From positions 2,784,001 to 2,848,000 of the forward strand of contig OY970296.1 of the NCBI GenBank assembly GCA_963716175.1: a stretch of 64,000 nucleotides of DNA, read 5' to 3'. The stretch comes from an uncultured Armatimonadetes bacterium (lineage in GTDB: Bacteria; Armatimonadota; Hebobacteria; Hebobacterales; Hebobacteraceae). Made by a program: the position numbers and the translations under genes. Within the stretch, counting starts at the first letter, position 1. Each line of letters starts with the position of its first letter. Positions 2,914 to 6,467 of the stretch are shown here, in pieces. The notes beneath the pieces are model-generated. The model ran no database searches and was not told where the DNA came from. It saw only the letters and a program-made list of their open reading frames with translations.

Positions 2914-3953
2914 TCATCTCGCCCCGCTCAGGTCCCAGGTGAAGCGACGGCCCTCGTCGCTCTGCTGAACCGAGAACTGCTTGACGGTGCTGCCGGACGG
3001 GATCAGGAAGTAGTACCGCGCCTTCGCTTCCTGCCCCGGTTCCACGTCCATGCTCACTGTCTCATCCCGGCTCGCGTACAGCAACTCCTGGTTCCAGTCC
3101 AGGTTCTCGCCCTCCGTGGTCCGCACTTTCGGTGCAAGGGCACTCCACCCCAGCGACTGCGTGTCCTTTGTCGGGTTCCGAAGAGTCATGTTGAGGACCA
3201 GGTAGCGCGCGCCCCCTCCGGGGCTTCTTCCTTGATGGCCCCGGTGGTATAGCTCGTAGAGTCGAGTCGCGCGTCCCACATCCCGACCGGGCAATACGTG
3301 CCTACCACCGCGGGCACATCCGCCAGCGCGGTCGCTCCACTCTTGTCCGCCGGGTCGCCGAATGGCGCCGCGAGCCCCTTCACCTTCTTGCGCAGATCAT
3401 AGCGGATCACCAGCTGGTCCTGTGCCTTCACGATCAGCTTGGGCACTTCGCCCCGCGCTGGAACGGTGATGATCGTGTAGGCGTCGAGCTTCTGCGCTGG
3501 CTTCAGGTCGAGGCTGAGCGCTTCCTGGGTCGACTCCACCCCGATGTTCTGCGGGTACTCGCGGTTTGTGTCAGTTGCGTCCACAGCGGTGAAGGAGCAT
3601 ACACTCCATCCGACCCCGCGCTCACTCGGCTGCGGGTTCTGTAAGGTGAAGTGCACTACCAGCAGCTTCTCCTCCGCCGTCGGCACGTAGTAGTCGGCCC
3701 CAATCCGCTTGCGCTCCGCTAGGTACTCGCAGCTCTTGAGAGTGAAGTTGATCGGGCTCTCTTTGCCCAGCGTGTAGGTCAGACCCAACTCCCCCTGGTC
3801 GCCCTTGAGTTGACTCGTCCCCTGCACGACCCGCTTCTGCGGCGCGGGCGGCTTCTTCTTCGCAGCCCCCGCCGCCACGCCGCCCATCACCGCCGCCAGC
3901 GTCGCCAGGCCCAGCACCAACGCCGCCGTCGTCCTCGCTATTTTCCCTACCAT
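2914..3953 (-). pseudogene. Secreted protein with two DUF4352-like Ig-fold domains, frameshifted near 3210
   Basis: Signal peptide and two homologous domains (LLVVHFTLQNP / YLVLNMTLRNP) split across ORFs 3186-3953 and 2914-3294 at a GC/C run. An IS110 sits in its RBS. Confidence 0.65.
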
Positions 3954-3974
3954 CTCAGCCTCCTATAATGCTGC

Positions 3975-4210
3975 AACTTGGATATCCGTACTGGTTTCAC
4001 CAGTATGGAGTGGGTTATAGTCTCCGGGCCGGGGCGTCGGGCGCGAGGTCTTCATTTCAGTTACGGCGCGACCGAGAAGAGGAGAATGACCCCTCGGCAA
4101 CCGGTCCGGAGCTTGGATTGCAACCTGCGGCACGACCGCGCAATTCAGGAGTCGAAGCGGGACCGGAGGCGACGAGGAGCTCCCGCGCTGGCGGCAGATC
4201 CATTGCCGAG
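3975..4210 (+). ncRNA. Putative IS110 bridge RNA
   Basis: A 5' hairpin (TCCGTACTGG/CCAGTATGGA) and two stem-internal-loop domains whose loops match target and donor sequences. Starts just downstream of TATAAT at 3964-3969. Confidence 0.7.
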
Positions 4211-4220
4211 GAGGTGGTGT

Positions 4221-5648
4221 ATGGCGGAAGCGAGGTTGTTGTGCGTGGGCATCGATGTCTCGTCGCGCTCCCTGGAGGTCGGCTTCTGCGATGGCAGCGG
4301 AGCGCCCATCGGCGGCGTGCAGTCCTTCCCCAACGACGCAACCGGCGCGGCCGCGCTCGGCGAGGCCGTGATGGTGATCGCACGCGCGTGCGGTCGCGGC
4401 ACCCAGGTGATGGCGGCGGTGGAGTCCACCGGCGAATATCATCGGGTGGCGGCGAAGGCGCTGCGGGCAGAGACGCGTCGGACGATCCAGGTGCACGTGC
4501 TCAATCCCCGCGAGGTCAAGTGGTTCCGCAAGCTGGAGCTCAAGGACACCAAGACCGACCGGGTGGATGCCGAGCTGATCGCCCGATTCCTGGCGAAGAT
4601 CCGCCCCCAGCCCCGCGCCCCCATGCCCGAGGGATTCGAAGCGCTCCAGGATGCCACTCGCACCCGGCGCCGCTGCGTGGAGGATCGCACCTCGCTCAAG
4701 AATCGGCTCCACCGGCTGCTGCGCACTCACTTCCCCGGCTATCGGGAAACGCTGGGTGCCAAGTTCAGCGTCCGCACCCTGGTGGCGCTGGCCGCCTGCC
4801 CCTCGCCCCAGGAGCTGCTCCGGCGGGGTGAGGCTCGCCTGAGTGAGTTGCGCAACTCCGACGGCAAGCGTGTCGGAGCCGCCTTCGCCCGGAAACTGAT
4901 CGCCCTGGCGAAAGCTGCCCCCGCGCGCCAACTGCCGATGATGGCGCGTCTCTCCATCCAGGACGCGGCCGTCCGCATCCTGCAACTGAATCGTTTCCTT
5001 CACGGCATGGACGCAGCCGTCGCCCAGGAGCTGGAGCGGCTCTTCCCAGATACGGTTCTGGCTTCGGTGCCGGGCCTGGGCCCGGTCTCGGTGGCTTCCA
5101 TCCTGGCCGAGACAGCCGACATCCGTCGCTTCCCGCACAAAGAGACTTTCGTGGGCTACTGTGGGCTCTATCCCATTGCCTGGGAGAGCGGAGACACCAA
5201 GCTGCGCTTCCGCATGACCCGCAAGGGCAACCGCATGCTGAAGATGACTCTGCTGGTGGCCTCGGCCGCCGCCCGCCAATACAACCCGGCGATCCGCCAC
5301 TTCTACGCCCGCCTGCGAGCCCGAGGCAAATCCAAGAAAGCAGCCGGAGGTGCCATCGCCCGAAAGATGGCTGAGATCGTCTGGGCCGTGCTCACCTTCA
5401 ATCAACCTTGGTCGGAAGAGATCGCCCTGCGCGGAATCGCTCGGGGAGAAGAGATGGCCCAGACACCGAAGGGGGAGCGACGCCTCACTGGAGATGCCGC
5501 GGGTCAAGCCCCGATGCAATCGGGACGACCACTCAAGGCGGCGTCGAGGTCTCGCGCTCCCCAGCGTAATTCTACCATCAGCGCTGGGAAAAACAAGCCG
5601 CCACATCTCCAACTTACTCGCTATGCCAGAGGCACGATTACCCCTTGA
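4221..5648 (+). CDS. IS110-family recombinase/transposase
   Basis: GIDVS, VESTG and KTDRVDA (DEDD), VPGLG, WESG, KGNRMLK and ARKMA motifs. RBS GAGGAGG before ATG 4221. Confidence 0.95.
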   Translation: MAEARLLCVGIDVSSRSLEVGFCDGSGAPIGGVQSFPNDATGAAALGEAVMVIARACGRGTQVMAAVESTGEYHRVAAKALRAETRRTIQVHVLNPREVKWFRKLELKDTKTDRVDAELIARFLAKIRPQPRAPMPEGFEALQDATRTRRRCVEDRTSLKNRLHRLLRTHFPGYRETLGAKFSVRTLVALAACPSPQELLRRGEARLSELRNSDGKRVGAAFARKLIALAKAAPARQLPMMARLSIQDAAVRILQLNRFLHGMDAAVAQELERLFPDTVLASVPGLGPVSVASILAETADIRRFPHKETFVGYCGLYPIAWESGDTKLRFRMTRKGNRMLKMTLLVASAAARQYNPAIRHFYARLRARGKSKKAAGGAIARKMAEIVWAVLTFNQPWSEEIALRGIARGEEMAQTPKGERRLTGDAAGQAPMQSGRPLKAASRSRAPQRNSTISAGKNKPPHLQLTRYARGTITP

Positions 5649-5899
5649 CATCAGTTATTGCATCTCCTCACCCGCCGCGTGCTCCTGGGCACTCCCGTTG
5701 CCCAGCCGTAAGTCGCCCGAAGCGCAGGCACAACCCCGGCCGCGATCTGCTTCCCACTACCGCGGCTGGGGGGCAATCACCTCCCCGCTCGGAGTTGCCA
5801 CGCGTCATCTCCGTGTAACAAGCTATCTGCATCGGGCGACGGTGCGATCGCCGTCGTAATCCGATATCGGCACGTCTGGAGCGATTCCGGCCGGTTCCA

Positions 5900-6060
5900 C
5901 GAGCCCCTGACAGCGGCAGGTGGACCCAGTCTACTCCCCGCTCAGCATCGCCTTCCGTCCTCGGTGGCCTCCCGCCTTAGGGGTGTCAGCGAGTGCAGAG
6001 AATACCGCGACTGCGGCTCACGAGCATCCTGGAAGCCAGATGGATTTCTGGACAGCGCGG
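5900..6060 (-). repeat. Dispersed repeat family, divergent partial copy 0
   Basis: Shares ACCCAGTC, TCAGCATCGCC, CCTCCC, AGGGGTGTCAGCGA and GATGGATTTCTGGACAG with the copies at 8960-9205 and 10220-10480. Confidence 0.65.
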
Positions 6061-6467
6061 GTTGAGCGCCACGTCTTCCCGGACGTCCGCATCACCGCGT
6101 ACCGCTTGGTCACCTGAGAGCTTGGCCCCTTTCCGGCTGGGGCCGGCCGTCGCACGCCTCGACGCGGGAGGGCGTCTCTGTGCCACAACTCGAGTAGCCC
6201 TGCCCGTCGCGCCGCGAGCGCCGTTCGGACTGCGTCGAAGGGAGCGCCATCAAGCCATCAGGAATCTGCCCTCTTCCTGGCCCACCAGGTGTCCCAAGCT
6301 CATGTGACAACCGCATGGTGTTCGCTCTGACCTGCAGCTAGCTCTGGTAGCAGGGGCCCGCTTTGTGGTATGGCCCTCCCGGCGAGGGCAGCAGGGACCG
6401 AGCGCGAGGAGATGGGCAGAGCCGGCGGGTCTGGCGCCAGCGATGCCGGATGCGAGGAGGGCAGGGA

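Follow-up and report, generated by a model that had tools for sequence, protein, structure and literature searches.

An IS110-family insertion sequence of an uncultured Armatimonadetes bacterium carries a split promoter predicted to be rebuilt on the excised circle and to drive a bridge RNA

The element and its boundaries

The DNA analysed here (the window) is a stretch of 64,000 nucleotides (nt), positions 2,784,001 to 2,848,000 of contig OY970296.1 (assembly GCA_963716175.1), from an uncultured Armatimonadetes bacterium. Near its beginning lies an insertion sequence of the IS110 family whose two ends each carry one half of a promoter. The halves form a perfect sigma-70 consensus when the ends are joined, and we propose that they meet at the junction of an excised circle, where the promoter would drive a bridge RNA encoded in the left end. 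The main features of the locus, in window positions, are:

3186-3953, minus strand: target gene, 255 amino acids (aa), with no Pfam match; the element lies at its Shine-Dalgarno sequence (GGAG, 6 nt, ATG)
3960-5667, plus strand: IS110-family insertion sequence, 1,708 base pairs (bp), the block common to the four genomic copies, one flanking copy of CTCC included
3960-3961, plus strand: CT, probable core dinucleotide, left copy; the right copy is at 5664-5665
3960-3964 and 5664-5668: CTCCT, as read in the sequence
4210-4214, plus strand: GGAGG, Shine-Dalgarno sequence of the recombinase gene, 6 nt 5' of the ATG at 4221
4221-5648, plus strand: recombinase (transposase) gene of the DEDD/serine bridge type, 475 aa, from Pfam and PDB matches

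The source genome is a single contig of 4.56 Mb, in which four copies of the element were found at distances of 32 kb to over 1 Mb from one another. When the copies were oriented and compared, the block that they shared corresponded exactly to 3960-5667 of the window, with unrelated flanks on both sides. Three copies are 1,708 bp long and differ at three positions or fewer, and the fourth (L004) is 1,706 bp. The boundaries proposed in the original prediction were open to correction by other copies, and they hold, since all four agree on them. The left end is non-coding over 261 nt (3960-4220), and the right end extends 19 nt past the stop codon of the recombinase gene. Terminal inverted repeats were not found; the ends read CTCCTATAAT... 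and ...TTGCATCTCC, and only CTCC is repeated, at both ends of all four copies. The fifth base past the right end is T in three of them and C in L003. In one metagenomic relative (L036) the left end has CTCT and the right end CTCC, so that the shared repeat need be only CT(C), the ends of that element having nothing beyond CTC in common. The original prediction had CTCCT as the shared core. That sequence is indeed present at both ends, but the crossover core is probably CT, the CC then belonging to the right donor and the right target. The choice of CT over TC rests on analogy with IS621, where cleavage adjoins a CT core. A crossover anywhere inside the repeat would retain one CTCC and the 17-nt spacer described below, and the joined sequence would be the same.

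The recombinase matched the full profile of PF01548 (DEDD_Tnp_IS110) over residues 9-172 (E = 5.3e-29) and PF02371, the C-terminal transposase domain, over residues 278-362 (E = 2.1e-20). Among proteins of the PDB it matched ISCro4 (9t56, E = 1.4e-17) and IS621 (8wt6, E = 5.7e-16). Residues D12, E68, D113 and D116 are invariant in a three-protein alignment, and the E and D..D motifs align with those of ISCro4. The region of the nucleophilic serine, GLGPVSVAS, contains both S290 and S293, and the alignment with ISCro4 sets the T/S one position off. Judged on its sequence, the element is an intact insertion sequence of the IS110 group, with both protein domains, a long non-coding region ahead of the gene and a short one after it, ends that share only a short repeat, a predicted bridge RNA and a split promoter. 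L004 (G000:C1:782977-784690) has intact ends and a 2-bp deletion which splits the recombinase open reading frame (ORF) near residue 232-236; this copy is probably non-autonomous.

The split promoter and its conservation

The promoter halves and the features that depend on them are:

3964-3969, plus strand: TATAAT, the -10 half, in the left end
5645-5650, plus strand: TTGACA, the -35 half, in the right end, containing the recombinase stop codon TGA (5646-5648)
5651-5667, plus strand: 17-nt spacer TCAGTTATTGCATCTCC, comprising left-donor sequence TATTGCAT, then core CT, then CC
3975-3977, plus strand: predicted start of bridge-RNA transcription, placed 6-8 nt past the -10 half by general sigma-70 geometry

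When the ends are joined through one CTCC the two hexamers fall into line as TTGACA-17-TATAAT, which agrees with the sigma-70 consensus at 12 of 12 positions at a spacing of 17 nt. The original prediction had described exactly this arrangement, and both hexamers and the spacer were found where it had placed them. In the linear form nothing comparable was seen. TTGACA-N17-TATAAT with up to one mismatch does not occur on either strand of the 64-kb window (expectation from 100 shuffles, 0.00), and a consensus scan of linear 3700-5900 returned no promoter-like site. The flanking DNA is a poor source of a missing half. At spacings of 16-18 nt, 15 left flanks gave 0-4 of six matches to TTGACA, and 15 right flanks gave 0-4 of six matches to TATAAT, mostly 0-2. 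Perfect TTGACA-N16-18-TATAAT sites number 12 in the whole genome, compared with none for the reversed control pattern, which suggests that the host RNA polymerase uses the TTGACA/TATAAT consensus. On the plus strand between the left end and the recombinase gene, a search for terminator-like sites found none.

Contigs from 4 of 17 DNA metagenome runs, examined over 3400-6200, gave no joints, neither circle junction nor empty site, though low-depth contigs cannot show rare circles. The metagenome contigs break at the element ends.

A protein search of 40 related genomes gave close relatives in two, G010 and G013, at 67-72% identity, and a search over a 401-genome sample of the phylum gave nothing beyond these two. 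Scanning metagenomes added 14 loci with identities of 49-91%; one more, L045, at 27%, was dropped. L045 and L040 (left end truncated, no right end) were excluded from all tables of ends, and L022 was excluded from the left-end counts on account of a truncated left end and a 34-nt deletion. A scan of genome contigs gave only relatives in Treponema and Fibrobacteraceae with 23-30% identity, too distant for comparison of the ends, and these were not used.

In each of the 16 right ends TTGACA is separated from the tip by exactly 17 nt, the last of which read TTGCATCTCC, and all 18 left ends start with CTC(C/T)TATA(A/G)N. The -10 hexamer is TATAAT in eight left ends, TATAGT in seven, TATAAC in two and TATAAG in one. 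In the eight closer elements the recombinase stop codon is invariably the TGA inside the -35 hexamer. Two more distant relatives, L041 and L044 (49-54% identity), have their stop codons 326 and 391 nt upstream of the TTGACA-17 arrangement, which they nevertheless keep in non-coding sequence; coding constraint therefore cannot explain the hexamer. Moreover TTGACA stands 18-23 nt from the right tip, beyond the bases matched by the donor guide of the bridge RNA, and its fixed 17-nt distance from the tip would make sense for the joined form alone.

A predicted bridge RNA in the left end

The RNA that the junction promoter is predicted to drive was examined in an alignment of 14 left ends folded with RNAalifold. 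Its parts are:

3985-4009, plus strand: 5' hairpin, from the minimum-free-energy fold; weakly conserved, with helix 1 58% paired in the family alignment
4047-4091, plus strand: target-binding loop, with outer stem 4047-4050/4088-4091 and inner hairpin 4062-4076
4051-4063, plus strand: left-target guide strand, in the target-binding loop
4078-4084, plus strand: right-target guide AGAGGAG, complement of CTCC and the following bases of the right flank
4085-4086, plus strand: handshake position of the target loop
4100-4167, plus strand: donor-binding loop, with stems 4100-4107/4160-4167 and 4111-4114/4155-4158 and inner hairpin 4127-4139
4115-4126, plus strand: left-donor guide strand AUUGCAACCU, which resembles the right-end tip ATTGCATCT discontiguously
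4147-4151, plus strand: right-donor guide AGGAG, complement of the left-tip CTCCT
4152-4153, plus strand: handshake guide UC of the donor loop

RNAalifold gave two modules 3' of the 5' hairpin, each consisting of a stem, an internal loop and a hairpin. The structure has six helices with 34 pairs; 86% of the alignment cells are paired and 14 pairs are changed on both sides. Its covariation score was 0.204, compared with 0.123 in shuffled alignments (none of 500 reached the observed value) and at most 0.075 when the pairing partners were slid. The four helices that flank the loops are 94-100% paired across the family. Two further pairings offered by RNAalifold were dropped, one between the first CTCC and the recombinase Shine-Dalgarno sequence, because this CTCC lies upstream of the predicted transcription start, and one of AUUGC with GCAAU in the donor loop, which is disrupted in L043 and falls on the donor guide.

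The guide strands were compared with the flanks of their own and of other elements. The left-target strand reads in the same sense as the left flank, with exact matches of 11 nt in L034, 9 nt in L041 and 8 nt in both L032 and L035, and that of the window element matches the flank of L002 at nine of 10 positions. Its mean local score was 7.19 for cognate pairs (n = 16) and 4.70 for non-cognate pairs (n = 195), and the observed sum of scores was reached in none of 5000 permutations. The right-target guide matched 2.73 nt beyond CTCC in cognate pairs (n = 15) compared with 1.19 nt in non-cognate pairs (n = 175; permutation p about 5e-5). The handshake bases of the donor loop, ie the two that follow AGGAG, complement the final two left-flank bases more often in cognate pairs: the agreement with left-target positions -1 and -2 was 1.38 for cognate and 0.54 for non-cognate pairs (p about 0.0003-0.003). 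L036, with its divergent left tip CTCTT, has a right-donor guide GAAGAG, a compensatory change. In L035-L038, L043 and L044 the left-target match runs straight into the CT (offset 0).

A search of 3500-6200 against Rfam, with E values up to 1, matched no family; the Rfam models matching here apparently include no bridge RNAs. Taking the fold and the guide matches together, the predicted left-end RNA is a bridge RNA of the IS621 type, with a target and a donor loop. A decayed copy, L022 (G013:C193, locus 1265-2932), abuts the end of an upstream ORF; about the first 50 nt of its left end are lost, the -10 half included, and its 34-nt deletion takes out the donor-loop hairpin and the right-donor guide.

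Target choice at gene starts

In all four genomic copies the left flank, read on the minus strand, contains GGAG followed after 6-8 nt by ATG, and these ATGs open minus-strand ORFs of 255, 434, 180 and 301 aa. The same arrangement was present in seven of 11 metagenome relatives; it is absent from L035, L037 and L038, and the flank of L044 is too short. The left end itself rebuilds the Shine-Dalgarno sequence as TAGGAG on the minus strand, and insertion is in one orientation. The stretch matched by the left-target strand always takes in the complement of the start codon (TCAT). Judged from these matches, the predicted target loop reads the Shine-Dalgarno and start-codon region of leftward genes. 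IS900 is said to target translation initiation signals likewise, in the words of the title of a 1997 paper by Doran.

Each of the four copies stands immediately 5' of the Shine-Dalgarno sequence of a leftward gene and separates that gene from the DNA upstream. A promoter facing outward was not found in the left end.

Proposed mechanism and alternative explanations

On the chromosome the promoter would be split, with TATAAT first inside the left end and TTGACA set back by 17 nt from the right tip. By recombining with each other, the two CT cores would release the element as a circle, in which the right end would abut the left end through a single CTCC and so create TTGACA-17-TATAAT. Transcription from about position 3976 would then make the bridge RNA, and the recombinase mRNA is probably transcribed along with it, since no terminator was found in between. 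Only the excised form would thus boost bridge RNA and recombinase, driving re-insertion. We regard it as highly probable that the split promoter is rebuilt at the junction of the excised circle and drives the bridge RNA.

Several observations weigh against this interpretation or limit it. In three of the 18 left ends the sixth base of the -10 hexamer is C or G; this position is normally important, and selection on the -10 half is therefore not absolute. The sigma-70 specificity of the host is deduced solely from the enrichment of the consensus in its genome. The left-target guide of the element fits two of its four flanks well (local scores of 9 and 6) and the other two poorly (4 and 5), and in the subgroup of the window element, in L041 and in L042 the left match lies 1-5 nt further from the core, which the IS621 model does not predict. 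The circle junction, the empty site and the transcript are predicted rather than observed, and so is the activity of the promoter. Finally, ISPpu9 is an example of an IS110-family element that does without a junction promoter.

The joined sequence would be identical if the right end-left end (RE-LE) junction arose mainly in head-to-tail tandem copies and not in free circles. We consider this very unlikely: there is no tandem among the four genomic copies, which lie at least 32 kb from one another, and the IS110-family intermediate documented in the literature available to us is a double-stranded circle. It is slightly less likely still that the hexamers act separately while the element is integrated, TATAAT with a -35 from the flank and TTGACA as an outward -35 for host genes. 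Outward -35 boxes at the ends of insertion sequences are known in other families, which counts in favour of that explanation. So does the low-level transcription of integrated IS621 given in the available text of PMC13626964. However, the hexamers that the flanks supply on either side agree poorly with the consensus, the scan of the linear arrangement finds no promoter, and a strict 17-nt distance from hexamer to tip fits the joined form only.

The least probable explanation, in our estimation, is that the likeness of the end hexamers to a promoter is incidental. In favour of this explanation, the spacer holds the left-donor sequence TATTGCAT and the core, which the donor loop would read, and the TGA of TTGACA is the stop codon in all eight close elements. 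However, TTGACA lies outside the match to the donor guide (ATTGCA, -7 to -2), L041 and L044 retain it in non-coding sequence, and an incidental consensus at 12 of 12 positions with optimal spacing would be very unlikely. A promoter rebuilt on the circle is the explanation that we carry forward.

Comparison with known systems

Bridge-RNA transcription from a reconstituted promoter of the IS621 type, which the original prediction took as established, is indeed in print (PMC11208160 and PMC13626964, in the portions available). In IS621, an IS110-group element of Escherichia coli, the RE-LE junction reconstitutes the promoter across its core, and RNA-seq places the start at a sigma-70-like promoter (available text of PMC11208160, Durrant 2024). 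When IS621 is integrated there is weak read-through transcription, and the circle boosts bridge RNA and recombinase (available text of PMC13626964). The present element has both protein domains and a long left end encoding an RNA with the target loop ahead of the donor loop. Its 5' guide strands have the sense of the top strand and its 3' strands are complementary, it has handshake positions and a probable CT core, and its -35 is in the right end and its -10 in the left end, to be rebuilt across the core in a circle which is here predicted; in all these respects it follows IS621 as described in the accessible text. It departs from IS621 in several others. The similarity of the proteins is distant (E = 5.7e-16, best stretch residues 279-397), and the recombinase has 475 aa compared with 328, with a C-terminal tail that reaches a stop codon inside the -35. 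The targets are Shine-Dalgarno and start-codon regions, whereas those of IS621 are REP (repetitive extragenic palindromic) elements. The left-target match stands at a variable distance from the core, and there is an additional conserved hairpin at the right end.

Junction promoters have been described for several IS110/IS1111 elements (PMC11187229, PMC12288879, in the parts available). As in ISPpu10 and in the Pjunc of ISEc21/ISEc11, described in the same accessible literature, the promoter of the present element would be a hybrid on the minicircle, with its -35 from the right end and its -10 from the left end. The promoters of ISPpu10 and ISEc21/ISEc11 were measured with a reporter or detected by polymerase chain reaction, whereas that of the present element is predicted. 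ISEc11 belongs to the IS1111 group and is described as having its guide RNA downstream of the gene; here the RNA is upstream. ISPpu9, an IS110-family element of Pseudomonas putida, carries a promoter of its own and none at the junction according to the available text of PMC12288879. It forms minicircles via a shared dinucleotide, as we infer for the present element, which differs from it in having a perfect junction promoter and no recognisable internal one.

A further likeness, by description, is to IS900 (Mycobacterium avium subsp. paratuberculosis, IS110 family), which reportedly inserts in one orientation at translation-initiation signals, the title by Doran mentioned above being the sole basis for this comparison. 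IS900 also has an ORF, hed, which spans the whole element on the complementary strand (available text of PMC8141618). The antisense frame of the present element differs from hed in that it is probably an artefact of high GC content.

The switch by a split promoter is already known from IS621; the element adds an example and leaves knowledge of the mechanism unchanged. It also adds a well-delimited and apparently active lineage of RNA-guided IS110 elements, with four near-identical copies of which three are intact, in an uncultured high-GC sediment bacterium. It provides a natural pair of bridge recombinase and predicted bridge RNA, directed to translation-initiation regions, with readable examples of guides and targets. 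Two details may be of interest to specialists, the shifting register of the left-target match and the conserved hairpin at the right end.

The right-end hairpin, the antisense frame and other observations

Two further features lie in or across the right part of the element:

5472-5558, plus strand: conserved structured RNA hairpin, about 90 nt upstream of the -35 and inside the C-terminal tail of the ORF
3963-5651, minus strand: antisense open frame of 562 aa, spanning the whole element

A covariance model built from six close sequences found the right-end hairpin in 15 loci. It has 29 pairs, is 94.7% paired in the alignment and shows seven pairs changed on both sides, counts which lean toward the model because the alignment was fitted to it. 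The covariation was 0.111, compared with 0.036 in shuffled alignments (0 of 500). The outer stem is GGGGAGCG/CGCUCCCC, with compensating pairs in its place in L041-L044; counterparts were located at L041:1925-2005, L042:2459-2539 and L043:1907-1984. G-U pairs suggest that the hairpin forms in RNA of the recombinase-sense strand. It falls within the tail of the ORF in the group of the window element and in non-coding sequence in L041-L044. The Rfam search of 3500-6200 gave no match for it. A pairing of the GGAGA of its loop with UCUCC of the left end was considered and dropped, there being no covariation in the relatives.

The antisense frame begins 12 nt after the GGAG of the right junction, and its final TAG shares bases with the Shine-Dalgarno sequence rebuilt for the target gene. 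It is nearly full-length in L001, L031, L032, L034 and L041, and broken in five of 10 relatives (L035, L036, L037, L038 and L044). We rejected it as a gene, since its codons are in register with those of the recombinase and it is interrupted in half of the relatives; most likely it is an artefact of GC bias. Because the frame is free of stops up to a TAG that overlaps the rebuilt Shine-Dalgarno sequence, read-through host transcripts could still be translated into the target gene, an arrangement like that of IS900 hed. The hairpin, for its part, could insulate the junction promoter, or be an RNA bound by the recombinase and used in excision. That the lineage is arranged for low harm at gene starts, maybe with a third functional RNA module, is a speculative idea which we think unlikely.

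Insertions and deletions notwithstanding, the recombinase frame of the eight closer elements has no stop before the TGA within the -35 hexamer. Roughly the last 60 residues of the recombinase overlie the right-end hairpin, and the proteins of L041 and L044 end before it. The source genome has two more recombinase genes of the IS110 family, at about 30% identity, G000:C1:2848895-2850052 (minus strand) and C1:45070-46215 (minus strand), the former about 0.9 kb past the end of the window.

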